Assembly: GCA_044869275.1 (NCBI GenBank)
Contig: JBIOXB010000117.1
Span: forward strand, 1-35,617
Length of the DNA stretch: 35,617 nucleotides
Direction of reading: 5' to 3'
Source: a bacterium
Lineage (GTDB): Bacteria; Zhuqueibacterota; Zhuqueibacteria; Zhuqueibacterales; Zhuqueibacteraceae
Both the position numbers and the translations under genes were made by a program. The first letter of the stretch is position 1. The number at the start of each line of letters is the position of its first letter. Positions 1,979 to 20,856 of the stretch are shown piece after piece. The notes under the pieces are model-generated. The model was given only the letters and a program-made list of their open reading frames with translations, ran no database searches and was not told where the DNA came from.

Positions 1979-2046
1979 ACCGCGAAGGCGCGAAGAACGC
2001 AAAGAAAGCGCCAAGAAAAGCTTCGCGCTCTTTGCGTCTTCGCGGT
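1979..2046. repeat. Inverted array of 8-9 nt units (ACCGCGAAG...CTTCGCGGT), hairpin-forming
   Basis: accgcgaag gcgcgaag aacgcaaag mirrored by cttcgcgct ctttgcgt cttcgcggt. Confidence 0.8.
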
Positions 2047-2116
2047 GAACAAATCGGTTGTGGCTGCGAGCCGCAAAATTACTTTCTCAATGCAACTTAA
2101 CATGGTCAAGGTCATC

Positions 2117-2500
2117 ATGAGTTACTATTTTGCTAAACTGACGTCATACACCTTTGATGAGTCCCTCCTCCGCGTCACCGAGGAGCTTAAGAAGGAAGGG
2201 TTCGGCGTTCTCACTGAAATTGACGTGAAAGCTACGCTGAAGCAAAAACTGAACGTCGACTTCCGCCGCTACAAAATTTTAGGCGCGTGTAATCCGTCTT
2301 TTGCCTATCAGGCGCTGCAGGCGGAAGAACATATCGGCGCGATGTTGCCGTGCAACGTCATCGTCCAGGATAAGGGCAAGGGGGTTGAGGTTGCTGCCGT
2401 CGATCCCCTGGCCTCGATGGCAGGGATTAAGAACGACATGCTGGCCGGCATTGCCGGGCAGGTGCGTGAAAAACTTGCGAAGGTCATTAAAAACGTTTGA
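2117..2500 (+). CDS. DUF302 domain protein
   Basis: EGFGVLTEIDVKATLK...YKILGACNP...IGAMLPCNVIV pattern; start reassigned to ATG 2117 (MSYYF). Confidence 0.85.
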   Translation: MSYYFAKLTSYTFDESLLRVTEELKKEGFGVLTEIDVKATLKQKLNVDFRRYKILGACNPSFAYQALQAEEHIGAMLPCNVIVQDKGKGVEVAAVDPLASMAGIKNDMLAGIAGQVREKLAKVIKNV

Positions 2501-2509
2501 GGAAATCAA

Positions 2510-2938
2510 ATGATAAACAAGCAAACTTTGATTGACCATTTGAATGACGATTTCGCCGGTGAGCTGGGCGCGATCATTCAATATTTGACTTACGCTGCCA
2601 AGGCCAGCGGGCCTTTCCGTCCTCAACTCGCGCAATTTTTTTTGCAGGAGGTTGCGGATGAGCAACTGCATGCGCAATTTCTCGCCAACAAGATCGTAGC
2701 ATTAGGCGGCGAGCCCATCACCAAGCCGCGCGCCGTTCCGGCAGCGCGCACCAATCGCGAAATGTTGGAGGCCGTGCTGGCGGCCGAACGCCAGGCGACG
2801 AAAGACTACACGCAACGCGCGAAGGAAGCTGAAGAATTCGGCGACAAAGGTCTCGTCGTGCAATTGGAAGACATGGTACGCGATGAAAGCGGCCATTCCG
2901 AAGAGACCGAAAGGATTCTGCGCGACTGGCCCGTGTAA
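2510..2938 (+). CDS. Ferritin-like (bacterioferritin-related) diiron protein
   Basis: ELGAIIQY, DEQLH, ER and DESGH diiron ligand pattern; GAGGA RBS. Confidence 0.8.
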   Translation: MINKQTLIDHLNDDFAGELGAIIQYLTYAAKASGPFRPQLAQFFLQEVADEQLHAQFLANKIVALGGEPITKPRAVPAARTNREMLEAVLAAERQATKDYTQRAKEAEEFGDKGLVVQLEDMVRDESGHSEETERILRDWPV

Positions 2939-2950
2939 AGGAGGGAATGA

Positions 2951-4318
2951 ATGGAAGATGCACTTCTGCTCGGTCGTTTCCAGTTTGCTTTCACCGTGAT
3001 GTTCCACTATCTATTCCCGCAACTCACCATGGGGCTGGCCTTACTGATCGTCATCCTCAAAGGATTAGCACTCCGGAAGAAAGATGAGCACTACAACCAT
3101 GGCGCCAGGTTTTGGGCAAAAATCTTTGCCGTTAATTTCGCTATTGGCGTGGTCACCGGCATTCCCATGGAATTTCAATTCGGCACCAATTGGGCGAAAT
3201 TCTCCGCCTTTGCCGGCGGCGTAATCGGACAAACTCTGGCGATGGAAGGAGTGTTCGCTTTTTTCCTGGAATCGAGCTTCCTCGGCTTGTTTCTGTTCGG
3301 CGAAAAGAAGCTGGGCCCAACCTGGCATTTCTTCTCGGCCCTGATGGTTTTCCTCGGCTCATGGCTTTCCGGCTATTTTATCATTGCCACCAACGCCTGG
3401 ATGCAGCATCCAGTGGGGCACGAGATGGCCGCCAACGGCGCGGTGGCACTAAATAGCTTTTGGAAGCTGTTGTTGAACCCATGGATCGGCTGGCAATACA
3501 CGCACAACATGCTGGGCGCAGTCGTCACCTCCGCGTTCGTCATGGCTGCCGTGGGCGCTTATTATCTCTTGGCGAATCGCGATCTTGACTACGGCAAGAT
3601 ATTTCTCCGCGTTGGCGTGACCACAGGCTTGCTCGCGGCGATCTTGGTCGCATTCCCGACCGGCGATGGACAGGGCAAGAATGTCGCCAAGTATCAGCCG
3701 GTCACGCTCGCCGCCATGGAAGGCTTGTTCGAATCCAAAGCAGGTGCCGAGCTGATTCTCGTCGGCCAGCCCGACATGGAAAAGCTGAAAATGGACAATC
3801 CCATTCACATTCCGCGCCTGCTCAGCTTTTTGACGTACAATCGCTGGCGAGCCGAGGTGAAAGGTTTGGACGCCTTTCCGCGGTCGGATTGGCCCACGAA
3901 CATTCCGCTGTTGTATTACGGCTACCACATCATGGTCGGACTGGGAACCATTTTTATTGCGATTTTGATACTTTCGGCTTTGATGCTTTGGAAGGGCAAG
4001 CTCGCCTCCGCCCGCTGGCTGCTTTGGATTCTGATGCTGAGTTTTCCCTTTCCTTATATAGCCAACACCGCCGGCTGGATGACGGCCGAGCTGGGACGCC
4101 AACCCTGGTTGGTTTATGGATTGATGCGCACGAGCGCGGGGCTTTCTCCCACGGTTTCAGCAGGAAACAGCCTGTTCACGTTGCTCGGCTTCATGGGCAT
4201 GTATATGCTGCTGGGTTTGCTGTTTCTCTTCCTGGTGATGCGGGAAGTGCAGCATGGGCCGGGCTATTTGGCGGATGGTGTGGATGGTGGGTTGTTGATA
4301 GTGGATCGTAGATCGTAG
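2951..4318 (+). CDS. cydA: Cytochrome bd quinol oxidase subunit I
   Basis: RFQFAFT..FHYLF, EFQFGTNW, NAWMQHP, LAAMEG and ELGRQPW motifs. Confidence 0.96.
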   Translation: MEDALLLGRFQFAFTVMFHYLFPQLTMGLALLIVILKGLALRKKDEHYNHGARFWAKIFAVNFAIGVVTGIPMEFQFGTNWAKFSAFAGGVIGQTLAMEGVFAFFLESSFLGLFLFGEKKLGPTWHFFSALMVFLGSWLSGYFIIATNAWMQHPVGHEMAANGAVALNSFWKLLLNPWIGWQYTHNMLGAVVTSAFVMAAVGAYYLLANRDLDYGKIFLRVGVTTGLLAAILVAFPTGDGQGKNVAKYQPVTLAAMEGLFESKAGAELILVGQPDMEKLKMDNPIHIPRLLSFLTYNRWRAEVKGLDAFPRSDWPTNIPLLYYGYHIMVGLGTIFIAILILSALMLWKGKLASARWLLWILMLSFPFPYIANTAGWMTAELGRQPWLVYGLMRTSAGLSPTVSAGNSLFTLLGFMGMYMLLGLLFLFLVMREVQHGPGYLADGVDGGLLIVDRRS

Positions 4319-4382
4319 ATAGTGGATAGTAGATCGTAGATAGTGTCCACATCCACGATCTACCATCTACGATCTACGATTT
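4273..4382. repeat. Inverted heptamer array (TAGATAG/TAGATCG versus CGATCTA) overlapping the cydA stop
   Basis: tggatcg tagatcg tagatag tggatag tagatcg tagatag ... atccacg atctacc atctacg atctacg. Confidence 0.85.
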
Positions 4383-4400
4383 TCATAACGGAGTAGGAAA

Positions 4401-5441
4401 ATGGAAACCTTCTGGTTCATCGCCGTCGGCTTCATGCTTACGATGTACGTCATCCTGGACGGCTTCGATCTGGGCGCGGGTATTATTCATTTGTTTGCCG
4501 CGAAAACGGAGGACGAGCGGCGCGTGGTTTTGAATGCGATTGGTCCGGTGTGGGACGGCAATGAGGTCTGGTTGCTGGCCGCGGGTGGGACGCTTTACTT
4601 CGCTTTTCCAAAACTCTATGCCTCCAGCTTCAGCGGATTTTATTTGCCGCTGATGATCGTGCTCTGGCTGCTCATGTTGCGCGCCATCGGCATTGAATTT
4701 CGCCATCATATTCATCATCCCATGTGGAAATCTTTTTGGGACGGCACCTTTGCCGTGGCCAGCATCTTGCTGACGATTTTTTTCGGCGCCGCGTTGGGCA
4801 ACGTCGTGCGCGGCGTGCCGCTCAATGCCGAAGGTTACTTCTTCTCGCCGCTCTGGACGACCTTCACCATTGTCCCCGAGGCCGGTATTCTCGATTGGTT
4901 CACCGTGCTCATGGGACTCGTCGCGTTTTTCACTTTGACGGCGCACGGGGCAAATTTTATCGCTATGAAAAGCGACAACGACTTGCAACAGCGTGCCCGT
5001 GCGCTTGCCAAGCCGGCATGGTGGGGCGCGGTCATGACCTCGATTCTGGCATTGTTTGCAGCCTCTTACGTGCGCCCAACGATTTGGAATAATTACGGTG
5101 AACATGTCTGGGGCTGGATTTTCCCGCTGACTGGGCTGGCGGGCGCTCTCGGGGTTTTCTATTTTCACGCGCGGCGGCAGGAGACACGTGCGTTTCTGGC
5201 CTCCACCGTTTTTATTGGCGGCATGGCCGCCAGCACCGCTTTCGGCTTGTTCCCGAATGTTCTGCCCGCTTCCACCGCTCCGGAATTCAGCCTGACGATT
5301 TACAATGTGGCCGGGCCGGCTTATGGTCTGCGGGTGGGATTGGTATGGTGGGTGATCGGCATCACCATCGCCTTGGCGTACTTCGGGTATCTGTTTTATT
5401 CATTTCGCGGCAAAGTCAAACTGCGCGCAGAGGGGTACTAA
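4401..5441 (+). CDS. cydB: Cytochrome bd quinol oxidase subunit II
   Basis: ILDGFDLGAG and IGPVWDGNEVWL motifs; follows cydA. Confidence 0.96.
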   Translation: METFWFIAVGFMLTMYVILDGFDLGAGIIHLFAAKTEDERRVVLNAIGPVWDGNEVWLLAAGGTLYFAFPKLYASSFSGFYLPLMIVLWLLMLRAIGIEFRHHIHHPMWKSFWDGTFAVASILLTIFFGAALGNVVRGVPLNAEGYFFSPLWTTFTIVPEAGILDWFTVLMGLVAFFTLTAHGANFIAMKSDNDLQQRARALAKPAWWGAVMTSILALFAASYVRPTIWNNYGEHVWGWIFPLTGLAGALGVFYFHARRQETRAFLASTVFIGGMAASTAFGLFPNVLPASTAPEFSLTIYNVAGPAYGLRVGLVWWVIGITIALAYFGYLFYSFRGKVKLRAEGY

Positions 5442-5450
5442 GCGGATTGA

Positions 5451-5520
5451 CAAACAAATTCAAAATCCAAAGCTCAAAATCCAAGACCACTTTGGATTTT
5501 GTGTTTTGAATTTTGAGCTT
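5451..5520. repeat. Inverted heptamer array (CAAAATC/CAAAATT versus GATTTTG/AATTTTG)
   Basis: caaattcaaaatccaaagctcaaaatccaa ... ttggattttgtgttttgaattttgagctt immediately after cydB. Confidence 0.75.
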
Positions 5521-5536
5521 CCAGATGAATCCATGC

Positions 5537-5567
5537 TGTAACCGAAGCGAGGCAGAATTCATCTAAT
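5537..5567 (+). promoter_or_regulatory. Putative ECF sigma autoregulatory promoter TGTAACC-N16-CATCTAAT
   Basis: Same motif with identical spacing recurs at 6425-6455; ends 1 nt before the sigma ATG. Confidence 0.7.
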
Positions 5568-5568
5568 C

Positions 5569-6168
5569 ATGAAGAAGGACGAGAAGCAATGGCTGGCGTC
5601 CATGCGCCGCGGCGAAGCGCGCGTGCTGCACAAATTGATCGATGCCTACAGCCCGAAGTTGTACACCGTCGCGTTGCGCATTTTGCGCCATCCGCAGGAT
5701 GCCGAAGATGCCGTGCAGGAAGCTTTGCTCACGGCGATTAGAAAGATTGATCAATTCGATGGCCGGTCCAGTTTGCAGACGTGGCTATATCGTATCGCCG
5801 TGAACGCGAGCTTGATGGCTCTACGCAAACGGCGTGTGAAGCGCCGGCGCGAAGAATCTTTCGAAGTGCCGCGTTTCGAAGATCTGCGCTCGCGCGAATT
5901 GGCGGATTGGAGCGCCGACCCGGCGCGCAAAATGCTGACCGCGGAAATGCGGCAGGTCATGGAGCAGGCGATTGATCATCTGCCTGAGAAATATCGCGTC
6001 GTTTTTGTTTTGCGGGATTTGGAGGACATGTCCACGGAGGCCACAAGCGAAATTCTCGGCCTCACGCCGGCCAATGTCAAAATCCGTTTGATGCGCGCGC
6101 GCTTGTTTTTACGCGAGCGGCTGGACGATTATTTTCACGAGCATAAATCCCGCAGGGTGCGGAAATGA
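5569..6168 (+). CDS. ECF sigma-70 factor
   Basis: DAEDAVQE and TWLYRIAVN (region 2); LPEKYRVVFVLRDLE...NVKIRLMRAR (region 4). Confidence 0.92.
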   Translation: MKKDEKQWLASMRRGEARVLHKLIDAYSPKLYTVALRILRHPQDAEDAVQEALLTAIRKIDQFDGRSSLQTWLYRIAVNASLMALRKRRVKRRREESFEVPRFEDLRSRELADWSADPARKMLTAEMRQVMEQAIDHLPEKYRVVFVLRDLEDMSTEATSEILGLTPANVKIRLMRARLFLRERLDDYFHEHKSRRVRK

Positions 6169-6410
6169 AGCATCGCCAAATCTTAAACAAAGTGTGCGAG
6201 TTCATCGACGGTGAACTCGATGACGAGACTTGTGCAGCCCTGCAGCAACACCTCGCCGCTTGCCCGCGCTGCCGGATTTTCGTCGATTCCATGCGCCAGA
6301 CCATCGTGCTGTATCGCCTTTGTGACTCTCCGAAGAAAATGCCGCGGGCGGCACGCCAGCGCTTGCATGCCAAGATCGCGTTGAAATGGAAGGTTAAGAA
6401 AAAGAAGTGA
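6165..6410 (+). CDS. Zinc-binding (zf-HC2/ZAS) soluble anti-sigma factor
   Basis: FIDGEL...HLAACPRC (HxxxCxxC); ATGA overlap with the sigma stop; no transmembrane segment. Confidence 0.88.
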   Translation: MKHRQILNKVCEFIDGELDDETCAALQQHLAACPRCRIFVDSMRQTIVLYRLCDSPKKMPRAARQRLHAKIALKWKVKKKK

Positions 6411-6424
6411 TCCCGAGACGGCTT

Positions 6425-6455
6425 TGTAACCCGTTCGAGGTCATGAGCATCTAAT
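6425..6455 (+). promoter_or_regulatory. Second copy of the putative ECF promoter, upstream of the selenopeptide/thioredoxin unit
   Basis: TGTAACC (6425-6431), 16-nt spacer, CATCTAAT (6448-6455). Confidence 0.7.
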
Positions 6456-6506
6456 TGATTGAATGAACCGGAAACGAGTCATCAGAAGCAGTGGAGGGAA
6501 AAGATA

Positions 6507-6722
6507 ATGGATTTGTTTTCAGGATTGCTGTTGCTGGCGTTTTACTTCTTATTGCAGTTGGTCATTTTGCCCAAATTGGGCATTCGCACTTGAATGTCGG
6601 AAGCCTGCCAGGTTCCGGGTGAACCGCGAAAGAGTAACGCTAGCACAGCCGCAAAAGAAAATGAGTCGTTGGCCAACGCGGCAAATGACTCCAGTTTATG
6701 GAAATACCAAGAGGAGATAAAT
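6507..6722 (+). CDS. Small membrane peptide with an in-frame UGA, probably selenocysteine (MDLFSGLLLLAFYFLLQLVILPKLGIRT-U-MSEACQV...); the read-through frame continues without a stop into thioredoxin to 7049
   Basis: RBS GGAGGG 6493-6498; ATG 6507; 28 mostly hydrophobic codons; TGA 6591-6593; SECIS-like hairpin 6606-6628; UxxxxC motif. Confidence 0.6.
6606..6628 (+). other. Candidate bacterial SECIS hairpin
   Basis: TGC(CA)GGTTC-CGGGT-GAACC-GCG; 22 nt separate the UGA from the apical loop, which has G at position 2. Confidence 0.5.
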
Positions 6723-7049
6723 ATGAGCAAGCCCATTGAAATTACCGATGCGAATTTTAAGAGTGAAGTCCTGGACGCGAGCGTCCCAGTACTGGTCGAC
6801 GTCTGGGCCGATTGGTGCATGCCCTGCCGTATGATTGCTCCGGCAGTAGAGGCCGTTGCCGTGCAATACGCCGGCAAAGTCAAGGTCGGCAAAATGGATG
6901 CGGACCGCAATTTCACGCCCTCGCAATTTGAGATTCGCGGCATTCCCACGCTGCTGTTGTTCCGCAATGGCAAGGTGGTGGATCGCATTGTCGGCGCCGT
7001 GCCGCAACAGGCCATCGCCAGCCGGATCGACAAGATTTTGCTGAACTAA
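6723..7049 (+). CDS. trxA: Thioredoxin (WCMPC)
   Basis: PVLVDVWADWCMPCR and IRGIPTLLLF; own RBS GAGGAG at 6711-6716. Confidence 0.93.
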   Translation: MSKPIEITDANFKSEVLDASVPVLVDVWADWCMPCRMIAPAVEAVAVQYAGKVKVGKMDADRNFTPSQFEIRGIPTLLLFRNGKVVDRIVGAVPQQAIASRIDKILLN

Positions 7050-7057
7050 ATTTGATC

Positions 7058-7084
7058 TGCGGCGCACGAGCAGAGTGCGCCGCA
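7058..7084 (+). terminator. GC-rich 10-bp hairpin after thioredoxin (weak terminator or mRNA-stabilising stem)
   Basis: TGCGGCGCAC-gagcaga-GTGCGCCGCA followed by a pyrimidine-rich, non-poly-T tail. Confidence 0.4.
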
Positions 7085-7131
7085 TCCTCTCTGCTTTGAT
7101 CATCCACCTCATTTCCATGCGGGAATGAACG

Positions 7132-8544
7132 ATGCGCGGCACGCATACCCAATCCTCAGCACAAATAAATCAAGCTGAGTTTCATGTTGATTACATTTGG
7201 GTGGCGCTGGCGGCGGCGCTGTTCATCGGCTTTGCGATCGGCGCGCACGTGGCTGCCGTCATCGGGTTCGATTTTCCGTTAGGCCCGGGGTTTTATAGCT
7301 TCGTTCAGGTTCACGGTCACGTGCAGCTCGTGGCGTGGGTGGGATTGTTCATCATCGGTATCAGCCTGCACTTTATTCCCCGTCTGGCCGGTGTTCCCAT
7401 TACGCCTCCCAAGTGGATCGCATGGATTTTATGGCTGATCGGCTCGGGCCTGATTATCAGAAGCCTCGGCCAGTGTGTGATGCCTTATGTTGCCAACGGC
7501 ACACTCTTCGTTGCGGTGGCGTGGACGGTCGTGGTGTCCGGCTTGTTGGAATGGCTTGGCATCATTTTGTATGCGGCTCTGCTGTACAGCGCTTTTCGCC
7601 GTGTCAAAGATTTTGGCAAACGTCCGGGCTTGTCTCAAGTCGCGCCATTCTTTTTGATGATGCTGGCCGGGTGGAATCTTTACGCCGGCATCAATTTCGC
7701 TTTGCTGATGGAAATGGCCTTAAGCCAATCCCTGGTGGTGATGCAATCTTGGAATGAATTTGCGATTCAGGCCTTCATCGGTTTGGTGCTCATGCCGGTG
7801 GCGTTTGCCTTTTCCGTGCGCATGTTTCCGCTTTACCTCCGGCTGCCCGCGCCCGAGTGGCCCGTGCGCAAACTGGCATTTGCCTATGGTTTCGTCTTCA
7901 GCCTGCAGGCCGTGCCCAACCTGCCGCCGCTTGCAAGTCTTCCTTCCCAATGGCCGCTATTGCTCTCGAGCCTGGGCATGATTCTCAAAGGCAGCGTGAT
8001 TTTGATCTTCATTTGGAAGCTGGACTTGCTTACGCGCCGGCGTCTGCCTTGGACCGCCAATCGCATGTTTTCTCCCGGGGCGGAGCGGCCACGCACGCGG
8101 CCAGGCCTGCCGGACTATGGCGAGTTTGGCCGATTCGAGCGCTTGGTTTATGCTGCTTATTTCTGGCTGGTGCTCGGTGCCATACTGGAAATGCTTTCCG
8201 GCGCCAGCACAATTTTCGGTTTCACCCTCACGCACAGCAGCGACGCCGGCCGCCACGTTTATCTCATGGGCTTCATCACTCTTCTGCTCTTTGGCATGTC
8301 GGTGCGTATGATTCCCGGATTCATGCAGAAGAAGAGAATTTGGAGCGCAAAACTGGTGGGGGCGACGTTTTGGCTGGGAAATGCCGCAGCTATTCTGCGC
8401 ATCATGCCGCTGCTTTTGCCGGCGGCGGTGTTTGAGGCCGCGCCGGCGATTCTGGTTGCACTCCAGGCCGCATTCGCTGTTTCCGGCATGGTTGCCATGG
8501 CGGCGGTATTATGTTTGACCATTAATTTAATGAAGACGGTCTAA
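7132..8544 (+). CDS. NnrS-like polytopic membrane protein
   Basis: About 12 hydrophobic segments; QVHGHVQL..W.G..IIG..LHFIPR and RHVYLMGFIT..LFGM..RMIP His motifs resemble the NnrS family. Confidence 0.6.
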   Translation: MRGTHTQSSAQINQAEFHVDYIWVALAAALFIGFAIGAHVAAVIGFDFPLGPGFYSFVQVHGHVQLVAWVGLFIIGISLHFIPRLAGVPITPPKWIAWILWLIGSGLIIRSLGQCVMPYVANGTLFVAVAWTVVVSGLLEWLGIILYAALLYSAFRRVKDFGKRPGLSQVAPFFLMMLAGWNLYAGINFALLMEMALSQSLVVMQSWNEFAIQAFIGLVLMPVAFAFSVRMFPLYLRLPAPEWPVRKLAFAYGFVFSLQAVPNLPPLASLPSQWPLLLSSLGMILKGSVILIFIWKLDLLTRRRLPWTANRMFSPGAERPRTRPGLPDYGEFGRFERLVYAAYFWLVLGAILEMLSGASTIFGFTLTHSSDAGRHVYLMGFITLLLFGMSVRMIPGFMQKKRIWSAKLVGATFWLGNAAAILRIMPLLLPAAVFEAAPAILVALQAAFAVSGMVAMAAVLCLTINLMKTV

Positions 8545-8631
8545 AGACTGTCGAGCTTCGGCGCGCGGCGAAAATCTGCTCCATAACTTCTCGAGCGGCC
8601 GAACGGAATTACCTTTCTCCCATTACCAACT

Positions 8632-9603
8632 ATGAAATCCCTTGCCAGCGCGAAGAACGCGAACGATGCGGTGCGGCAATCGAAATTTGCGATGAGCCTT
8701 TCGCTGGTCGTTGGCGTTGTTATGTTCTTTACCAAAGTCATCGCCTATATGATGACGCAATCGGCGGCCATCCTGTCCGATGCTGCGGAATCCGTTGTTC
8801 ATCTCTTCGCCGTTGCTTTCGCGGCCTATAGCCTCTGGCTCAGCATGAAGCCGGCGGACAGGTCTCACCTCTACGGCCACGACCGCATTAGTTTTTTCTC
8901 CGCCGGTTTTGAGGGCGCGATGATTATGATTGCCGCGGTGTTCATCATTCATGCAGCGATCCAAAAATGGCTCGCGGGATTGCAACTGCAAAACCTCGCC
9001 GCCGGCGCCGGTTTTGTCGCGTTCGCCACGCTCGCCAATGGTGCATTGGGCTGGTATCTGGTTCGGCAGGGCCGCAAGCACCATTCCCTGGTGCTCGAGG
9101 CCAACGGCAAACATGTGCTCACGGATAGCTGGACCAGCTTGGGCGTAATCGTCGCGTTACTGTTGACGCTTTGGACCGGCTGGCTGCCCTTCGATCCGAT
9201 CATCGCCATACTCGTTGCACTCAATATTCTCTGGACGGGCTCGAAGCTGATCCGGCGCGCGGTCGGGGGCTTGATGGATGAGATGGATCCGGAAATTGAT
9301 GCCAAGCTTCGCGAGATTTTGCAGCGCGAAACGCAGAAGCACCATATGCAATTTCACGGCCTGCGGCATCGCAATTCCGGCCATAGACTGCTGGTTGAAT
9401 GCCATATGCTCTTTCCTGAAAAGACGTCAATTGCGCAAGCGCACGAGCTGGCCACCCTCATTGAGCAGGAAATTCACCACGCTTTTCCCATGGTCATAGA
9501 AATCACCACGCACCTGGAGCCGATAGAAGGGCATGACGAAATCCACGAGAAGCTCTTGGAAGGCGACGAACATGGCGATGCACTCAAGCCGGCACAGCGA
9601 TGA
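8632..9603 (+). CDS. Cation diffusion facilitator (FieF-like) transporter
   Basis: SAAILSDAAESVVH, HLYGH and HVLTDSWTS; C-terminal dimerisation domain ending THLEP. Confidence 0.92.
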   Translation: MKSLASAKNANDAVRQSKFAMSLSLVVGVVMFFTKVIAYMMTQSAAILSDAAESVVHLFAVAFAAYSLWLSMKPADRSHLYGHDRISFFSAGFEGAMIMIAAVFIIHAAIQKWLAGLQLQNLAAGAGFVAFATLANGALGWYLVRQGRKHHSLVLEANGKHVLTDSWTSLGVIVALLLTLWTGWLPFDPIIAILVALNILWTGSKLIRRAVGGLMDEMDPEIDAKLREILQRETQKHHMQFHGLRHRNSGHRLLVECHMLFPEKTSIAQAHELATLIEQEIHHAFPMVIEITTHLEPIEGHDEIHEKLLEGDEHGDALKPAQR

Positions 9604-9761
9604 AAATTCCAAGGCCCGGGGAGTACTGGCGCAAAGAGCGAATTGTGCAAGTCTTCCCAAAGATAAGAACTGCCGCCATTCGTTTTACCAAGACTAAGAA
9701 AAAACACGGGAGGAGGCCATGATTCGGTAAACGGCAGGAGCACGATAATTAGCTGTTTTAT

Positions 9762-9793
9762 AGCCGTTTGTGTACGCACAAACGGCTTTTTTT
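9762..9793 (+). terminator. Rho-independent terminator
   Basis: Perfect 11-bp stem AGCCGTTTGTG-TACG-CACAAACGGCT followed by a T run. Confidence 0.85.
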
Positions 9794-9984
9794 GTTTTCT
9801 GGCGGATCAGGGCATGTCGTTTGAAGTGTGAAGCTTCAGCGTTTGCAACGCAGTGAAATCGAAGTTGGTTGCAAGGAGATCGTGCAGCTAGACTTATACA
9901 AGCCCTGCGGGAAATGGTGCGCGATCCTTTGGCACCTCATTTCACGGTTGAAAATGACCGTGCAGAATGCTAGGAAGTCTCAAG

Positions 9985-12900
9985 ATGAAAACAGAGAATT
10001 TTGTAACGCTCGACGGCAATGAAGCCGTGGCCCATGTGGCATTTCGGCTGAATGAAGTCATTGCGATTTATCCGATCACGCCGTCTTCGCCCATGGGGGA
10101 ATGGGCGGATGCGTGGGCCTCGGAGCGAAATCCGAATCTCTGGGGCACGGTTCCCTCGGTGGTAGAAATGCAAAGCGAAGCCGGCGCCGCCGGCGCCGTG
10201 CATGGTGCGTTGCAAGCCGGCGCGCTGACCACCACCTTCACTTCCTCGCAAGGCTTGCTGCTGATGATTCCCAATATGTACAAGATCGCCGGCGAGCTGA
10301 CCTCGACGGTGTTTCATGTGGCGGCGCGCTCCCTGGCAGCACAGGCACTTTCCATTTTTGGGGATCACAGCGACGTGATGGCCACGCGCGCCACGGGCTT
10401 CGCCTTGTTGTCTTCCGCCTCCGTGCAAGAAGCGACGGATTTCGCCGTGATCGCGCAGGCAGCCACGCTCAAATCGCGTATTCCGTTTTTGCACTTCTTT
10501 GACGGCTTCCGCACCTCGCACGAAGTCTCAAAAATCAAGATGATTTCTGATGACGACATGCTTGCGATGATCGACGATGAGCTGATTTTGGCGCATTGTG
10601 CCCGCGCGCTTTCTCCCGATCATCCGGTGCTGCGCGGCACGGCGCAAAACCCCGACGTGTATTTTCAGGCGCGCGAAACCGTCAATCCTTATTACTTCGC
10701 TTGCCCCGACATTGTGCAAGGGGCAATGGACAAATTCGCCAGGACCACGGGGCGGGCGTATCGCTTGTTCGAATATTACGGCGCGCCCGACGCCGAGCGC
10801 GTCATGGTGCTCATGGGCTCGGGTTGTGAAACGGTGCAGGAAACCGTCGACTACCTCAATCGGCATGGTGAAAAAGTGGGCGTGCTCAAAGTGCGGTTGT
10901 ATCGCCCGTTTGATCTCAAGCGCTTTATTGAAGCCCTGCCGGCAGCCACGCAGGCCCTGGCGGTGCTGGACCGCACCAAGGAACCGGGCAGCGCCGGCGA
11001 GCCGCTATATCTCGACTGCGTCAATGCGCTGCACGAAGGCAGGAACAACGGGGGGCTGAAAAGCCTTCCCAAAATCATCGGCGGGCGCTACGGCTTGTCT
11101 TCGAAAGAATTCACGCCCGCCATGGTGAAAGCGATCTTCGACCAGCTCGCGCAGACCGCGAGCAAGAATCATTTCACCATTGGCATCCATGATGACGTGA
11201 CGCACACCAGTCTGCCATATGATCCCGCTTTCTCTACGGAGCCGGACAGCGTGATCCGCGCGTTGTTCTACGGTCTGGGCTCCGACGGCACGGTCGGCGC
11301 CAATAAGAATTCCATCAAGATCATCGGCGAGAACACGGACAACTATGCGCAGGGTTATTTTGTCTATGATTCCAAGAAAGCCGGAGCGGTCACGGTTTCG
11401 CATTTGCGCTTCGGGCCGGAACCGATTCATTCGACTTATTTGGTGACGCGGCCTAATTTCGTTGCCTGCCACCAGCCGATTTTTCTCGAGCGGTATGAGA
11501 TGCTGGACGGCATCGTTGAAGGAGGTACGTTTTTGCTGAATAGCGCGCATGGACCGCAGGAAGTGTGGCAGCTTCTGCCGGCGGGTTTGCAAAAACAAAT
11601 TCTGCAAAGAAAACTGAAGTTCTATGTGATCGATGCCAACAAAGTTGCGCGGGAAAGCGGCATGGGCGGGCGCATCAATACTGTGATGCAAGTTTGCTTT
11701 TTTGCCTTGTCGGGCGTGCTGTCGAAAGACGCCGCCATTGCCGCGATCCGGCAATCGATCGAGGAAACCTACGGCAAGAAGGGGGAGGAAATCGTCCGTA
11801 TCAATCTCGCGGCCGTTGACCAAACGCTGGCGCATTTGTTCGAAGTGCAAATTCCGAATCATTTGAACGGCCACCTCGCTTTGCCACCGCCGCCCTTGGC
11901 GCAAGCGGGTACGTTCGTGCGCGAGGTATTGGGAAAAATTATTGCGGGCAAAGGCGATGAACTGCCGGTCAGCGCGCTGCCCATCGATGGCACATTCCCG
12001 ACCGGCACGGCAAAATGGGAGAAGCGCAACCTGGCGATGGAAATTCCGGTGTGGGAGCCGGAGATTTGCATTCAATGCGGCAAATGCGCGATGGTCTGCC
12101 CGCATGCCGTGATTCGCATCAAGGCCTACGATGAAAAACATCTTGCCGGGGCGCCGGCCACCTTCAAGGCGTGTGACGCACGCGATCGCGAATGGCAAGG
12201 GCTGAAATACACGATTCAGGTCGCGCCCGAGGACTGCACCGGCTGCGCCCTCTGCGTCGACGTTTGTCCCGCGAAGAAAAAATCCGAAACCCGCATCAAA
12301 GCCATCAACATGCGCCCGCAGCCGCCGTTGCGCGAACCGGAGCGTGAGAATTGGGATTTCTTCCTGTCCCTGCCGGAAATGGATCGCCGCCAAATCAAAG
12401 TCGCGAGCATTCGCCAGCAGCAAGTGCAGGAGCCGCTCTTCGAATTCTCGGGCGCGTGTGCCGGTTGTGGTGAAACGCCCTATGTCAAGCTGGTGACCCA
12501 GTTGTTCGGCGATCGCGCCATCGTCGCCAACGCCACGGGCTGCTCGTCGATTTACGGCGGCAATCTCCCGACGACACCCTGGACGGCGAATGCCGACGGA
12601 CGCGGGCCGGCGTGGTCGAATTCCCTGTTTGAAGACAATGCCGAGTTCGGCTTGGGCTTTCGCCTGGCCATTGACAAGCAAAAGGAGTTTGCCGCGCAAT
12701 TGCTGCAAAGGCTGTCCGGCACGATCGGCGATGACTTGGTGGGCGCCATTCTTGCCGGGGAACAGCAAGACGAAGCGGACATTTATGAACAGCGCGTGCG
12801 CGTCGATCTGCTCAAAAAGAGACTGCAACGCCTGGCTTCGCCCGAGGCGAAAAAGCTCCTGGCTCTCGCCGACATGCTGATCAAGAAAAGCGTGTGGATC

Positions 12901-13566
12901 ATCGGCGGCGACGGCTGGGCCTATGATATCGGCTTCGGCGGCCTGGATCACGTGTTTGCGAGCGGGCGCAACGTGAACATGCTTGTGCTCGACACGGAAG
13001 TGTACTCCAACACCGGCGGGCAAATGTCCAAGGCCACGCCGCGCGGGGCGGTGGCAAAGTTCGCCGCCGGCGGCAAGCCCGCGCCGAAAAAGGATCTGGG
13101 CTTGATCGCCATGACTTACGGCAACGTTTACGTCGCAAAGGTGGCCATGGGCGCGAAGGACGAACATACGCTCAAAGCTTTTCTCGAAGCCGAAGCATAT
13201 GAAGGACCGTCGTTGATCATCGCATACAGCCATTGCATCGCGCATGGCATCAACATGGCGACTGCGATGCAAAATCAAAAGGCCGCGGTCGATACCGGCC
13301 AATGGCTGTTGTACCGCTATCATCCCGAGCGCGCAAGCAAAGGTGAGAACCCGCTGCAGCTTGATTCCCAGCCTCCCAAAATGCCGGTGGAAAAATATTT
13401 ATACATGGAGAATCGCTTCAAGATGCTCACCAAGAGTAGGCCGGAAGAGGCCAAGCATTTGCTCAAAGCGGCGCAGGAAGACGTGAATTTGCGGTGGAAG
13501 TTTTACGAGTACCTGGCGGCGCGGAGCGTTGAGGGTCGAGAAGCGAAGATAGTAGATGGTAGATAG
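9985..13566 (+). CDS. nifJ: Pyruvate:ferredoxin (flavodoxin) oxidoreductase, single-chain
   Basis: YPITPSS, two CxxCxxCxxxCP ferredoxin motifs, GACAGCGE, and the GGDGWAYDIG TPP motif; start set to MKTENF. Confidence 0.97.
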   Translation: MKTENFVTLDGNEAVAHVAFRLNEVIAIYPITPSSPMGEWADAWASERNPNLWGTVPSVVEMQSEAGAAGAVHGALQAGALTTTFTSSQGLLLMIPNMYKIAGELTSTVFHVAARSLAAQALSIFGDHSDVMATRATGFALLSSASVQEATDFAVIAQAATLKSRIPFLHFFDGFRTSHEVSKIKMISDDDMLAMIDDELILAHCARALSPDHPVLRGTAQNPDVYFQARETVNPYYFACPDIVQGAMDKFARTTGRAYRLFEYYGAPDAERVMVLMGSGCETVQETVDYLNRHGEKVGVLKVRLYRPFDLKRFIEALPAATQALAVLDRTKEPGSAGEPLYLDCVNALHEGRNNGGLKSLPKIIGGRYGLSSKEFTPAMVKAIFDQLAQTASKNHFTIGIHDDVTHTSLPYDPAFSTEPDSVIRALFYGLGSDGTVGANKNSIKIIGENTDNYAQGYFVYDSKKAGAVTVSHLRFGPEPIHSTYLVTRPNFVACHQPIFLERYEMLDGIVEGGTFLLNSAHGPQEVWQLLPAGLQKQILQRKLKFYVIDANKVARESGMGGRINTVMQVCFFALSGVLSKDAAIAAIRQSIEETYGKKGEEIVRINLAAVDQTLAHLFEVQIPNHLNGHLALPPPPLAQAGTFVREVLGKIIAGKGDELPVSALPIDGTFPTGTAKWEKRNLAMEIPVWEPEICIQCGKCAMVCPHAVIRIKAYDEKHLAGAPATFKACDARDREWQGLKYTIQVAPEDCTGCALCVDVCPAKKKSETRIKAINMRPQPPLREPERENWDFFLSLPEMDRRQIKVASIRQQQVQEPLFEFSGACAGCGETPYVKLVTQLFGDRAIVANATGCSSIYGGNLPTTPWTANADGRGPAWSNSLFEDNAEFGLGFRLAIDKQKEFAAQLLQRLSGTIGDDLVGAILAGEQQDEADIYEQRVRVDLLKKRLQRLASPEAKKLLALADMLIKKSVWIIGGDGWAYDIGFGGLDHVFASGRNVNMLVLDTEVYSNTGGQMSKATPRGAVAKFAAGGKPAPKKDLGLIAMTYGNVYVAKVAMGAKDEHTLKAFLEAEAYEGPSLIIAYSHCIAHGINMATAMQNQKAAVDTGQWLLYRYHPERASKGENPLQLDSQPPKMPVEKYLYMENRFKMLTKSRPEEAKHLLKAAQEDVNLRWKFYEYLAARSVEGREAKIVDGR

Positions 13567-14720: not shown

Positions 14721-14869
14721 ACCGCGCACCAGCCCGATTTTTTGATGATTCTTTGACTTGATTTTTGAAATAATATTCTTATCTATGGAAGAGATGGGTA
14801 CAGGGAATCGAGTACTCAGAACAAAAGCACTGCGCACGTACGATGCAACTCTCAGAAAGGGAGCCGAAA

Positions 14870-15421
14870 ATGATGAAGCGTTGGAAAAGTGTATTCATGT
14901 CCGTTGCGGTCTGTATGATCGTGCCGAGCGCGCTTTTGGCGCAAAGCAAATTTAAATACGTCGGAGCAAATACTTGCAAGCCGTGCCACATGACAACCAA
15001 AAGCGGCGCGGCGTTTACCGTCTGGCAGAAAAGCTCGCATGCCAAGGCTTTCGCCACCCTGGCCACGCCGGCGGCATTGGAAATTGCCAAGAAAAAAGGC
15101 ATTGCCGATCCACAAAAGGACGCCGCGTGTTTGAAGTGCCACGACACTGCGGCAGGAGTTGCTGCGACGCAATTGGCGTCCACGTTTAAAGCAGGGGAGG
15201 GCGTGGGTTGTGAAGCTTGCCACGGCCCGGGCTCGGAATTCAAGACCATGCAAGTGATGAAAGATATCGATACCGGCAAGATCAAGGGCGAAACCGTCGG
15301 CTTGATGAAGGGGGACGAAAAACTTTGTTTAACGTGCCACAATTCCGAAAGCCCAAATTTCAAAGGTTTCAATTTCGCGGAATACAGCAAAAAAATTGCG
15401 CATCCGACGCCCAAACCATAG
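14870..15421 (+). CDS. Periplasmic tetraheme cytochrome c, c554-like
   Basis: Signal peptide (LLA-Q); YVGANTCKPCH, CLKCH, GVGCEACHGPGS and CLTCH. Confidence 0.88.
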   Translation: MMKRWKSVFMSVAVCMIVPSALLAQSKFKYVGANTCKPCHMTTKSGAAFTVWQKSSHAKAFATLATPAALEIAKKKGIADPQKDAACLKCHDTAAGVAATQLASTFKAGEGVGCEACHGPGSEFKTMQVMKDIDTGKIKGETVGLMKGDEKLCLTCHNSESPNFKGFNFAEYSKKIAHPTPKP

Positions 15422-15610
15422 CGCCAATGAACTACCTCGGAATTTCAGACGAGCTGAGAACCAAGGCCTGAGCGCAGCAGCAATGGCACAATTATCCTGA
15501 TTATTTCTTGCTCTTGGTCAATCGGTTGATCTTAAAGGCTTTCAGGTTTTATTCCAATTTTGATGAGCTCAAGGCTTATCGGATTGTTGGATTTATGGCG
15601 CGAGGGAATA

Positions 15611-16915
15611 ATGGCGAGTGCTCAACTCAACGTAAAAATAGATTTGTTCGCTGTAAAGGTTGTCGCTTCCGTCATTAGGCCATTCAGCCATTATTCCCTT
15701 GCTCCTCTGGTTCTTTCTCTCCTTCTGCTCGCCACTGCGGATTTTGCGCAAGCTCAAGACGATTGTCTCTCTTGTCACGGCGATAGCGCATTCGTCGCCA
15801 CGGACAGTGCGGGGGTGGAGCATTCGTTGTTTGTGGACGCCGCGAAAATGGAACACGCGGTGCATGCCGGCTTCGATTGTGTCACCTGCCACGCTGACGC
15901 GAAGGAAATTCCGCATGCGGAAAAGCTGGCACCGGCAGTTTGTGGCGATTGCCACCCGGACGCTTTGGCCGAGGTGGGGGAAAGCGTGCATGCCCGGCTC
16001 GAGGGTGCAGCATCTTCCGATACTCCAACGTGCAGCGACTGCCACGGTACCCATGAGATTCGCGCGAAAACGGATTCGCTTGCCTTTGTCAATCCCCGGC
16101 AGCTCGCCTTCACTTGTGGCCGCTGCCATGCCAATCCTGAAATCGTGCAAAAACACAAAATTCCCATTCGAGATCCGGTCACCGCTTACAGTCACAGCAT
16201 TCATGGGCGGCTGGCATTGGCGGGCGTGGACAGCGCCGCGACGTGCAGCAGTTGTCACGGCGGCCACAAGATATTAGCTGCCAATAATTCGGTCTCACCG
16301 GTTTACCATTTCAACATTGTGCAAACCTGCAGCCAGTGTCATTCCGCCGTTGCGGAAGAATTCGCGCAGAGCCTTCACGGTGCGGCGGCGGCGCGTGGCT
16401 CGCGAGACGCGCCGGTTTGTACCGATTGCCATAGCGAGCATGCCATCGAATCTCCCAGCGTCGCTTCCGCGCCAACGTCTGCTCAGAATCTGGCGGTGGA
16501 GACCTGCGGCCGATGCCATGCGTCCACACGATTGGTTGAAAAATATGGCATCCGCGGGGAGCGGCTGTCGACTTTTGCCGACAGCTATCATGGTTTGGCG
16601 TTGCGCTCTGGCAGCGTGACGGTCGCCAATTGCGGAAGCTGCCACGGGGTGCACAACATACTGCCCTCGAGCGACTCCCGCTCTATGATTCACGCTTCGA
16701 ACCTGGCAAAGACCTGCGGCCAGTGCCATCCCAATGCCGGCGAGAATTTTGCAGCCAGCCCTGTGCATCTGAGCACCGCCGAAAGCGAGGGCCGGGCGGT
16801 CGCCGTCATCCGCGCGATTTATGTCGGATTGATTGTCGTGGTCATCGGCGGCATGCTGATTCACAATGCGCTGGATTTTGTACGAAAAAGCAAGCATGTG
16901 TTAAGGCGAGAATAG
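15611..16915 (+). CDS. 11-heme cytochrome c with C-terminal membrane helix (c-domain of a split CbcL-like protein)
   Basis: 11 CxxCH; signal peptide AQA-Q; C-terminal TM ending GGMLIHNALDF; GAGGG RBS before ATG 15611 (start uncertain). Confidence 0.88.
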   Translation: MASAQLNVKIDLFAVKVVASVIRPFSHYSLAPLVLSLLLLATADFAQAQDDCLSCHGDSAFVATDSAGVEHSLFVDAAKMEHAVHAGFDCVTCHADAKEIPHAEKLAPAVCGDCHPDALAEVGESVHARLEGAASSDTPTCSDCHGTHEIRAKTDSLAFVNPRQLAFTCGRCHANPEIVQKHKIPIRDPVTAYSHSIHGRLALAGVDSAATCSSCHGGHKILAANNSVSPVYHFNIVQTCSQCHSAVAEEFAQSLHGAAAARGSRDAPVCTDCHSEHAIESPSVASAPTSAQNLAVETCGRCHASTRLVEKYGIRGERLSTFADSYHGLALRSGSVTVANCGSCHGVHNILPSSDSRSMIHASNLAKTCGQCHPNAGENFAASPVHLSTAESEGRAVAVIRAIYVGLIVVVIGGMLIHNALDFVRKSKHVLRRE

Positions 16916-16927
16916 TGATTATGCTTG

Positions 16928-16981
16928 GGATCGCCGTTTGAATAAACAGCCCGTTTTGAAACCGCTAATGAACGCAAATGT
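16928..16981. repeat. Left arm of a ~55-bp inverted repeat (partner 20857-20911)
   Basis: Reverse complement aligns to 20857-20911 at 49 of 55 positions by manual alignment. Confidence 0.85.
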
Positions 16982-17184
16982 TTGGACTTCATCTATCAGT
17001 TGGAGTCGCCCGCAGGGCTACGGTTTTCATCCCGCCCCTTCGGCATGAAAATCCGTTAGAGATCAAGGAACATTACTGGGATAGCTACGCAATGTTCAGG
17101 GAAGATTATCTTTTCACTGTGCAAGCAGCAGCACGGCAGCTCCATCCGCTCCTAAAAGTACGAGAAGACCAATTTGGAGGTAAA

Positions 17185-18351
17185 ATGACTACAAAAATTT
17201 TATTGGCAGCGATCATTTTAGCGTCGCTTATATCTTGTCAAAAAAATATCACACCTCCGGATGCGGCGGAGACTGTAATGCAGAATGCGATGATCTCAGT
17301 GTCGCTACAGAATATTGCGCCTAATACGTGGGTGGAAATTCCAGCAACCTACATGGTACCGCCAAATGGCGGAAATCACTTTCCGCAAGGGTGGAACAAA
17401 GCGGTCTACGATCCTGTAGGAGAAAGAATTTTGGTATTTGACCGATGGTACGATGTGGTACGCGGCAGCACTATTTACGCCAACGCCGTCATAGATTTTT
17501 CCCCATCTTCGGGTCAAGCATCACTCGTGAAAATCAACAATTGGAAAAAGCAATCGACTCCTACTGGAGGATATAAGACTGTTGAAATGCTGCCCGAGAA
17601 CTCGATTGATCCTACGCCGGTTGATAGACACCCATACGGCGCATTAGCATTCATTCCAGAGCAAAATGCGTTGTACATCGCGAATGGAGCTAATCAATCC
17701 GCCCCAAACGGTCATGTTGATGCAAAGAACACTTGGAAGCTTGACATGTCGAGCCGTACTTGGACAAAAGTGTCATCAACTTTGCATCCACCAAACAATC
17801 TGGAAGACTGCATGACTTATGATGTATTAAATCATATGCTCATTTATTTCGCGCATGGCCCTGCCTATGCACCTGAAACATGGACTATGGATGTGTTCAC
17901 AGGACAATGGATAAAAACCACTTTGCAGGCACCATCACCGCCCGGACGCATGGGTGGCAGCATGGCATACGATCCCGTTCGCAATGTTTCCATGTTGTTC
18001 GGCGGGGCGAGGTATCCGAACCCCGGCAGAGATTTGTGGGCATACGATGCCGCTCTAAATACGTGGACGCGCAAAGCCGATGCGCCGGTCGATATGCGTA
18101 TGGCTGGATTTGCTTATGATTCGTTGCATGATGTATTTCTTGCTGTAGCAAACGTAAATGGCGTTACGCGAGTTGTGATATACGATCCAATTCAAAATAG
18201 TTGGGCGGAATTGATCAAACCAGTCGGAGCAAGTTGGCCAGCAATGACTAATAAGCAATCAATGGCCTACGATGCCAAAAACGACGTGTTTGTTTATCAG
18301 GGGGGCAATTGGCAAAAGGCACAATGGTATATTTTGGGATACCAACCATGA
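17185..18351 (+). CDS. Kelch-like beta-propeller lipoprotein
   Basis: GGAGG RBS; lipobox-like LISC; repeated MAYDP..N...LFGG / W.YD...NTW units; visibly more AT-rich than the flanks. Confidence 0.75.
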   Translation: MTTKILLAAIILASLISCQKNITPPDAAETVMQNAMISVSLQNIAPNTWVEIPATYMVPPNGGNHFPQGWNKAVYDPVGERILVFDRWYDVVRGSTIYANAVIDFSPSSGQASLVKINNWKKQSTPTGGYKTVEMLPENSIDPTPVDRHPYGALAFIPEQNALYIANGANQSAPNGHVDAKNTWKLDMSSRTWTKVSSTLHPPNNLEDCMTYDVLNHMLIYFAHGPAYAPETWTMDVFTGQWIKTTLQAPSPPGRMGGSMAYDPVRNVSMLFGGARYPNPGRDLWAYDAALNTWTRKADAPVDMRMAGFAYDSLHDVFLAVANVNGVTRVVIYDPIQNSWAELIKPVGASWPAMTNKQSMAYDAKNDVFVYQGGNWQKAQWYILGYQP

Positions 18352-18413
18352 TTCAAAAATACTATGAAACCGGAAATAAACTCAGTGTAGCTTATTAGGG
18401 TAAGGAGAATACG

Positions 18414-19409
18414 ATGAAATATCGCAGACTAGGAAAATCCGAGGCCCAAGTATCGGCCTTGGGCTTGGGATGCATGGGAATGTCGGATTTTTATGGCGGG
18501 CGGAAGACGAACGATGCGGAAAGCGTGGCAACTATCCGGCGCGCGCTCGAGCTCGGTGTAAATTTTCTCGACAGCGGCGACTATTACGGCGTCGGGCACA
18601 ACGAAGAGCTTATCCGTGAAGCCATGAGAGGCTTTCCGCGTGAGCGCGTTTTTATTGCGATCAAGTTTGGCGGCCTGCGCAATCATGACGGCAATTTCAT
18701 CGGCTTTGACACCCGGCCCCTGGCCATTAGAAACTATTTGTCCTACAGCCTGCAACGCTTGCGCGTTGACTATATTGATCTCTACTACCCGGGTCGCGTT
18801 GACCCGAACGTGCCAATTGAAGAGACCGTGGGAACACTTGGGGAGCTTGCAAAGGAGGGCAAGATCCGTTACCTCGGTCTGTCCGAAGCAGGACCGGCAA
18901 CGCTTCGCCGCGCCTCCGCGACCCATCCCATTGCCATGCTCCAAACCGAGTACAGCCTGTGGACACGCGAGCCTGAAACCGACGTCCTGCCTGTTTGCCG
19001 CGAGCTGGGTATCAGTTTGGTGGCTTACTCCCCGCTCGGACGCGGTTTTTTGACCGGCGCCTTTCAGAAACCGGAGGACTTTGCGCCCAATGATTTTCGC
19101 CGCCACATGCCACGTTTTCAAGGGGACAATTTTGAACGCAATTTACGGCTGGTTGAAAAGGTCAAGCAAATCGCCGACGAAAAGAACTGTACGCCGGCGC
19201 AACTTGCTCTCGCATGGCTGCTGGCCCAGGGCGAGGACATCGTGCCGATTCCGGGGACCAAGCGCCGTGAACGGCTCGAAGAGAATGTGCAGGCTGTGGG
19301 CATTGAGTTGAGCGCCGCCGATTTGCGCCGCATCCAGGAGGTTGCGCCGCTTGGAGCCGCCGCCGGCACGCGCTATCCCGAAGCGATCATGCACACGGTT
19401 AATCGCTAA
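18414..19409 (+). CDS. Aldo/keto reductase
   Basis: [36 protein letters not shown] and PIPGTKR. Confidence 0.94.
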
Positions 19410-19427
19410 TCGAGTACAAGTCAGCCA

Positions 19428-19492
19428 TTCGTAAAATACGCATTACGTATTATGTTTTACGCCTTACTAACGCAATGCGTAATTCGTAATTC
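19428..19492. repeat. Degenerate inverted heptamer array (CGTAA-/TTACG-type)
   Basis: cgtaaaa tacgcat tacgtat tatgttt tacg ... tgcgtaa ttcgtaa ttc. Confidence 0.6.
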
Positions 19493-19508
19493 AACTTAAA
19501 AGCATGGC

Positions 19509-20249
19509 ATGAGCACCAATAACCAGCAATACTATCTCCGCTGGACCCGCAGCGAGCGCTATCAGCATTGGATTCTCGCGATCAGTTTTATCATTCTCGC
19601 GATTACGGGCTTTGCGTTGAAATACCCTGAAGCGGCGTGGGTGCAGCCGCTGTTGATTTTTGAAGGGAATTTTGCTTTGCGCGGATGGATACATCGCATT
19701 GCTGCTCTCACGCTCGTTGGTTTGAGTATTCATCACGTTGGCTACATGCTGCTGATGGCACGCGGGCGAACCTTGCTCAAGGCGCTGGCACCAACGCGGC
19801 AGGACTACGTCGATTTCATAGATAATGCTCGTTTCCTGCTCCATCGGCGCGAAGCGCCGCCGGAGTTTGATCATTTCTCCTACATGGAGAAGTTAGAGTA
19901 TTGGGCCTTGGTGTGGGGCACGGTAGTGATGGCAGTGACCGGTTTTTTGTTGTGGTTTGAAAACTTGGCGCTGAGGGTTTTTCCGTTGTGGATGATGGAA
20001 GTGTTCACCGTGATTCATTTGTACGAAGCATGGCTGGCGACATTGGCGATCTTGGTCTGGCATTTTTATGCGGTGGTCTTCAATCCGGAGATTTATCCGC
20101 TCAATCAGAGCATGATCGACGGCAAGATGTCCGAGCACGAGATGGAAAGAGAGCACGGCAGGGAACTGGCGCAGCTAAGGGCGAAGGCAGAAGAAGCGAC
20201 GGAAGAAATGACTCAAGTCGCGGCAGAGGATGAGCCGGTGGTGAGGTGA
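19509..20249 (+). CDS. FdnI/HydC-like diheme cytochrome b (b-domain of a split CbcL-like protein)
   Basis: R..HW, WIHR, FSYMEKLEYWALVWG and VIHLYEAWLATLAILVWHFY; clearly homologous to the C-terminus of 21012-23789. Confidence 0.88.
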   Translation: MSTNNQQYYLRWTRSERYQHWILAISFIILAITGFALKYPEAAWVQPLLIFEGNFALRGWIHRIAALTLVGLSIHHVGYMLLMARGRTLLKALAPTRQDYVDFIDNARFLLHRREAPPEFDHFSYMEKLEYWALVWGTVVMAVTGFLLWFENLALRVFPLWMMEVFTVIHLYEAWLATLAILVWHFYAVVFNPEIYPLNQSMIDGKMSEHEMEREHGRELAQLRAKAEEATEEMTQVAAEDEPVVR

Positions 20250-20339
20250 GGTTTTCTGTCTCATGGTAAGGAGGCAACGCCAAAGCATTTTTCGTTGCAT
20301 GCCAGGTTTGATGCAAAACTGACGTAGCAATCTACTCGA

Positions 20340-20848: not shown

Positions 20849-20856
20849 AATAGCGT

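Follow-up and report, generated by a model that had tools for sequence, protein, structure and literature searches.

The in-frame TGA at positions 6591-6593 of contig JBIOXB010000117.1 almost certainly encodes selenocysteine (Sec). The recoding is strongly supported by homologues that pair TGA with Cys at the same site, by conservation that continues past the TGA, by a covarying SECIS-type hairpin and by the presence of selA, selB and tRNA-Sec in the genome. As far as the sequence comparisons indicate, the conserved unit is a single-helix membrane selenoprotein of 50-65 residues with a U-x4-C motif, and not the 180-residue fusion with thioredoxin that is open in this copy. The family appears to be real and widespread and is apparently absent from the catalogues checked, and fusion to thioredoxin is a rare variant that has arisen repeatedly and gives a hint of the function. 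The features of the window (the whole stretch of 35,617 nucleotides that was analysed) are as follows:

5537-5563, + strand: TGTAAC-N16-[G/T]CATC, predicted promoter motif for an ECF sigma factor, upstream of the sigma gene (motif search)
5569-6168, + strand: ECF sigma-70 factor (TIGR02937, 115.5 bits, cut-off 42.9)
6165-6410, + strand: Cys/His-rich, RsrA-like anti-sigma factor (TIGR03988, E 2.5e-10, below cut-off)
6425-6451, + strand: second copy of the predicted promoter motif, ahead of the selenoprotein-thioredoxin unit (motif search)
6493-6498, + strand: ribosome-binding site of the small gene, GGAGGG (sequence)
6507-6590, + strand: codons 1-28, comprising a single predicted membrane helix (roughly residues 3-23) and the motif LP[KR]LG[VI]xT (hydropathy, structure model, invariant residues)
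6591-6593, + strand: TGA, putative selenocysteine 29 (site codons of homologues; Cys in 109 of the best 150 database proteins)
6606-6608, + strand: Cys34, partner in U-x4-C (conservation of the +5 Cys in the family)
6611-6625, + strand: SECIS-type hairpin with loop 6616-6620 (consensus test, covariation, RNAalifold)
6627-6722, + strand: polar, unconserved tail and linker, predicted to be disordered (pLDDT; tails vary among homologues)
6711-6716, + strand: internal ribosome-binding site of thioredoxin, GAGGAG (sequence)
6723-7049, + strand: thioredoxin of 108 residues with WCMPC, in frame with the selenoprotein (TIGR01068; tree grouping)

Reading frame of the locus

The first-pass annotation had described a ribosome-binding site, a hydrophobic peptide of 28 residues, a TGA and a frame open into a thioredoxin with its own ribosome-binding site, and all of these are present in the sequence. 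The 28 codons from ATG 6507 end in LPKLGIRT, the TGA follows, and the frame then stays open to TAA 7047-7049, giving a product of 180 residues with U29 and C34 when the TGA is read as U. The thioredoxin starts at ATG 6723, behind GAGGAG, and scores 107.2 bits against the TIGR01068 cut-off of 96.8. A second contig from another study spans 6389-7050 with 54 substitutions and no gaps, indicating that the reading frame is not peculiar to one assembly. The changes listed for codons 1-28 of that contig are four synonymous and three conservative ones, and its linker may still contain a stop.

Selenocysteine site and the homologous family

Comparison of 130 distinct homologous loci, a subset biased to the best hits, showed TGA at the site in 117, a Cys codon in 12 and TAA in one. 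Nine of the 12 Cys loci were found with a search pattern that demanded Cys, so that the ratio of TGA to Cys is not a frequency. The annotation had asked for TGA or Cys at codon 29 in homologues with conservation past it, and these loci bear out both. Matches to the first 48 residues occur in 47 of 61 genomes, this one included, and each match spans a TGA. The residues L21, P22, G25 and T28 are invariant in the family, and a Cys stands five residues after the site in 102 of the 117 TGA forms and all 12 Cys forms. No Cys lies within 12 residues of the site in 11 of the 117 TGA forms, including two that stand beside TrxA (L207 and L208).

A family profile, built from 28 of 30 fetched loci after omission of two near-duplicates, matches 83 of 133 genomes (62%) of this phylum, 110 of 251 (44%) in the phylum of the Desulfobacteraceae record (sulfate reducers) and 23 of 251 in that of the Planctomycetaceae record. 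In protein databases, the same profile finds 1243 cluster representatives at E <= 0.001. The site residue in the best 150 of these is Cys in 109, Trp in 28 and another residue in nine, and four are truncated at the site. The Trp forms (P0004, P0012, P0015 and others) probably arose where gene callers mis-read TGA under genetic code 4. In the clusters looked up, the named members are called 'hypothetical protein'. A genome-wide reading of TGA as Trp or Gly was rejected, since 2697 long open reading frames of this genome end in TGA.

The SECIS-type hairpin

A hairpin of bacterial SECIS-like geometry with a bulged lower stem had been proposed behind the UGA. The geometry stands: positions 6611-6625 form a stem of 5 bp and a loop of 5 nt that starts 22 nt after the UGA, with G second in the loop. 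The bulged lower stem is not part of the family consensus, which comprises the upper six pairs only and holds no conserved lower stem. Single-sequence folding of this copy is not significant (z = +0.2 to +1.0 against shuffles), and its minimum-energy folds favour a competing stem. The hairpin rises above chance only by comparison with its relatives.

A test devised for this analysis from the published bacterial consensus (PMC13188914, Fig. 2A and Table 1, the latter covering 119 prokaryotic selenoprotein families), and written after the sequences were seen, called for a hairpin 16-37 nt after the UGA with G at loop position 1 or 2. It was passed by 104 of the 117 TGA forms and four of the 12 Cys forms, against 235 of the 2697 TGA stops of long open reading frames in this genome (9%) and 10% of sequences recoded synonymously from the TGA forms. 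For covariation, a gap-free alignment was made of 37 of 47 TGA loci, leaving aside ten that were near-duplicates or had a shifted hairpin. RNAalifold predicted the identical hairpin unprompted from this alignment. All seven pairs show two-sided changes, and none of 500 shuffles reaches the covariation score. Of the cells, 87% pair, whereas slid controls were 32-56% paired. In the copies left aside, the hairpin has shifted along with a 15-nt insertion or given way to another at 17-19 nt, which likewise argues for selection on the element. In L018, L020, L022, L024, L026 and L027, it stands at 37 nt behind such an insertion or a new hairpin is present at 19 nt, suggesting that the SECIS element is turning over within one family.

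Selenium machinery of the genome and its relatives

The genome, 94% complete, carries selA and selB above the model cut-offs and the tRNA-Sec gene selC. Of the four sel genes that the first-pass annotation had listed for a check, only selD was not found: TIGR00476, PF00586 and tblastn with SelD of five relatives gave no match in this assembly. Since selD is present in 55 of 60 relatives, the same genus included, an assembly gap is more likely than true absence. The genome has a second selenoprotein, a SelW-like gene (PF10262) with CxxU read through one TGA at G000:C208:42069-42281 (L213). Searches of this genome found no formate dehydrogenase alpha gene with an in-frame TGA, and no Sec form by TIGR01591 and TIGR02187. 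A search for Cys/TGA pairs with 5998 hairpin-bearing candidates against the genome's own open reading frames yielded only repeats and wrong-frame noise. Among the relatives, selA is present in 43 of 46 that carry the small gene and in three of nine Cys-form genomes searched, counts that include related, hence non-independent, genomes and several incomplete ones. In one genome (G050, contig C19, locus L035), selD immediately precedes the small gene, which is followed by genes for a zinc ribbon and a glutaredoxin-like protein.

The TGA could instead be a true stop that closes a 28-residue peptide and is followed by re-initiation at ATG 6594 or by chance sequence. An ATG does follow the TGA directly in 82 of the 117 loci, one homologue has TAA, selD was not found and the hairpin of this copy is weak when taken alone. 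However, Met follows the site also in contiguous Cys homologues, and L, V, G, A, I or T takes its place in the other 35 TGA loci. A true stop would moreover drift to TAA or TAG, yet only one of the 118 non-Cys loci has done so while 117 keep TGA, and the hairpin covaries at a fixed distance from the UGA. Termination at this codon is scarcely credible. The sole TAA homologue (L091, G133:C54:21471-21593) lies in a genome with selA and retains a weak hairpin. The annotation had named lack of the Sec machinery, homologues ending in TAA or TAG and loss of conservation behind the TGA as outcomes against Sec insertion; none of these was found, apart from that single TAA in 130 loci and the missing selD.

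Protein anatomy and topology

The small protein has one hydrophobic stretch, with a hydropathy of 2.48 over residues 3-21. The structure model, computed from an alignment of only three rows, shows a helix at residues 3-23 and a confident thioredoxin fold. Residues 30-72 between them are of low confidence, with pLDDT below 50 at residues 30-58 and 64-72, and the model holds no ordered structure around Sec29. By the positive-inside rule, the more basic flank of a membrane helix faces the cytoplasm. In 117 of 118 members, the segment behind the helix holds more Lys and Arg than the one in front of it, so the tail with U-x4-C would face the cytoplasm. The thioredoxin here has no signal peptide and would thus work on the cytoplasmic side. 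Lipoproteins are recognized by a lipobox and signal peptides by a basic N-region; the sequence has neither, and both assignments were rejected.

Recurrent fusion with thioredoxin

The membrane-anchored fusion of 180 residues that had been predicted for this locus is open in the DNA, but the conserved product is the small protein, as the frame ends 13-51 codons past the site in 128 of the 130 loci (median 26 over all 130). In-frame fusion to thioredoxin was found in two of the 130 loci, this one and L201, and in the database protein P0141; its frequency among the best 150 database proteins is 1/150. L201 belongs to another phylum and is a Sec form that has a hairpin and an internal ribosome-binding site of its own, and P0141 is a Cys form on one short contig. 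In the tree, the thioredoxin of this locus groups with unfused orthologues (support 100/99), apart from those of L201 and P0141; the three fusions apparently arose independently. A metagenome scan with the fusion gave thioredoxin orthologues, none of them fused. Word-index searches for longer or fused forms, weak tests because gene callers do not report Sec fusions as proteins, gave nothing new, returning P0141 itself and two unnamed proteins of 110 and 124 residues. Long open frames in eight genomes (G444, G575, G645, G603, G233, G281, G343 and G254) were rejected as fusions, being upstream read-through.

In the same family of organisms, orthologues of this thioredoxin follow other genes, and both parts are separate there. 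An unfused TrxA lies next door in L176, L207, L208, L053 and L058, and in L207 and L208 the stop of the small gene overlaps the thioredoxin start. At this locus, the +1 frame closes at TAA 6718-6720; together with the overlap in L207 and L208, this indicates that a shift of one base is enough to turn one layout into the other. The fusion would be easy to reach by accident, and here it may be accidental; the chances that it is under selection are about even. The small gene of L111 is the first in an operon of zinc ribbon, DUF6132, DUF302, ferritin-like and OsmC-like genes that ends in the orthologous thioredoxin, an order that makes origin of the fusion by loss of the operon's middle genes plausible. 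The DUF6132 gene of that operon (L111:1254-1856) encodes a hydrophobic stretch followed by C-x-S-G-x-C, which resembles the C-M-S-G-A-C of the family as a likeness of motif alone. The proposal that selenium supply switches between the anchored and soluble products would go no further than what the layout allows.

Neighbouring genes and proposed function

The favoured reading, held with somewhat better than even confidence, is that the small protein is a membrane-tethered, cytoplasm-facing Sec-Cys redox pair re-reduced by thioredoxin. Upon expression, SelB bound to the hairpin, whose loop starts 22 nt after the UGA, would direct the insertion of Sec29, and a single helix would anchor the protein, leaving Sec29-x4-Cys34 on a disordered cytoplasmic tail. 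The pair would be oxidised by peroxides, disulfides or sulfane sulfur and then re-reduced by thioredoxin. At this locus, recoding would give the anchored fusion and the internal start the soluble thioredoxin. The fusions here, in L201 and in P0141, with the unfused TrxA neighbours, argue for thioredoxin as the partner. The redox reading is weakened by the 11 TGA forms with no nearby Cys and the lack of ordered structure around the Sec, and also by the rarity of the fusion and the identity of the commonest neighbour, which is a zinc ribbon rather than thioredoxin.

Neighbours were counted by motif search within 1.5 kb in the 130 loci. The small gene is followed directly by an FmdB-type zinc ribbon in 51 and preceded by one in two, across two phyla, and a thioredoxin-fold motif was found in 22. 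The downstream zinc ribbons start 70-270 nt after the TGA (L017, L025, L036 and 48 more loci). The zinc ribbon has an extra invariant Cys near its C-terminus, and with its frequency this would fit a Sec/Cys pair that binds either a metal or another protein, with the zinc ribbon as the likeliest candidate, and tethers the latter to the membrane, the thioredoxin fusion being an accident of operon shuffling. However, the zinc-ribbon motif stands beside none of the Cys-form or Planctomycete loci examined, and the 130 loci hold no zinc-ribbon fusion against three separate thioredoxin fusions, so that such tethering seems unlikely. No zinc ribbon adjoins the small gene at the present locus.

Other neighbours across the loci are ferritin-like, OsmC, DUF302, rhodanese/metallo-lactamase and TauE genes. 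Five Cys forms (L054, L056, L057, L060 and L180) lie amid rhodanese, metallo-lactamase-rhodanese, TauE and flavin oxidoreductase genes. These surroundings, and the position of the small gene directly after selD in G050, would suit a membrane-side sulfur or selenium carrier, in which the Sec/Cys takes a persulfide from rhodanese and passes it to a TauE-type exporter or an oxidoreductase, and thioredoxin strips it. Such neighbours are, however, rare among the Sec forms, and the usual second Cys suggests an internal bond over a free persulfide; a carrier role is distinctly unlikely. Elsewhere in the window, a membrane protein of 470 residues at 7132-8544, with no Pfam match and a weak cbb3-oxidase hit, also lies near this thioredoxin in L142 and L143. 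Genes for multihaem cytochrome c, cytochrome b561 and cytochrome b/b6 cluster at 14843-26696, and cytochrome bd oxidase, ferritin-like, DUF302 and pyruvate:ferredoxin oxidoreductase genes are found at 2045-13566.

The predicted promoter motif stands ahead of the sigma orthologues in L112, L113, L114 and L141, and ahead of thioredoxin orthologues too. It precedes the small gene in ten of 129 loci, all from this family of organisms or near it, against one on the reverse-strand control. Genome-wide it is only slightly enriched, with eight sites at spacer 16 against one to five at other spacers, and a sigma-70 scan gave nothing beyond chance. The adjoining RsrA-like anti-sigma factor and the common promoter motif suggest a disulfide-stress regulon of the sigma/anti-sigma pair and the small gene as the simplest reading. 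The pair would induce the gene through this motif under disulfide, oxidative or sulfur stress.

The small gene is often the first after the promoter motif, and the overlap in L207 and L208 suits translational coupling. Both would accord with a short open reading frame that acts as a selenium-sensing leader, in which read-through tunes the downstream gene and the product matters little. The abundant Cys forms with the same protein motif, however, cannot sense selenium. The helix, the LP..G..T motif and the +5 Cys are conserved as protein features while the downstream genes vary, and a leader is very unlikely.

Comparison with known systems

Searches of 28 members against NCBIfam 20 and Pfam gave no credible match, the best being E 0.0028 to an unrelated family in two of the 28. 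Two hypothetical families of PMC12013277, NF049953 and NF049942, do not match this locus. No description of the family was found in the available portions of the literature, including PMC12013277, 10.1101/2021.05.15.444318 and PMC10298544; the groundwater candidates of Deng et al. 2026 could include it. A term search of the supplement of PMC13326102 gave no hit. The ESM Atlas holds one unnamed cluster at 0.88, a lead only. Protein databases list the family as hypothetical Cys forms, as truncations of 28-29 residues or with Trp in place of the Sec. Selenoproteome counts for these phyla would therefore lack a common gene. At about 55 residues, the protein can be synthesised or expressed, which opens membrane Sec-Cys chemistry to direct tests, and thioredoxin, to which it is naturally fused, is the first candidate partner.

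Like the known bacterial selenoprotein genes covered by PMC13188914, the present gene has a UGA aligned with Cys, a hairpin in the coding region with G in the first two loop positions at 16-37 nt, and SelA, SelB and tRNA-Sec. Its layout is without counterpart in the family table of that review (Table 1): no listed family has UxxxxC or a name suggesting this anatomy, some rows being given without a motif, and the nearest listed motifs are UxxxxU of TsoB and LULAxC of TsoA. The Sec-thioredoxins with UxxC in the same table likewise combine a thioredoxin fold and Sec in one polypeptide. However, the thioredoxin here has an ordinary WCMPC active site, and the Sec belongs to a separate membrane module, 75 residues upstream. 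The pairing of an ECF sigma factor with a small Cys/His anti-sigma factor beside thioredoxin resembles SigR-RsrA, which responds to disulfide stress in Actinobacteria (PMC4960319, PMC3961337), whereas the anti-sigma factor here falls below the TIGR03988 cut-off and the likeness of the regulon is the co-occurrence of a motif alone.

A further likeness in layout is to the eukaryotic SELENOK and SELENOS, which also combine one hydrophobic helix with Sec in a disordered segment, here by prediction. No such Pfam hit was obtained at E <= 1, and the layout is an analogy rather than homology. In contrast to those proteins, the small protein is half the size or less, and its Sec lies just past the helix rather than near the C-terminus. 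Tentatively, and with considerable doubt, the family might be a bacterial counterpart of SELENOK and SELENOS and among the most widespread uncatalogued bacterial selenoproteins. Sec-x4-Cys might then serve as a thioredoxin-driven switch at the inner membrane face, with fusions that are selected and selenium setting the share of anchored and soluble thioredoxin.
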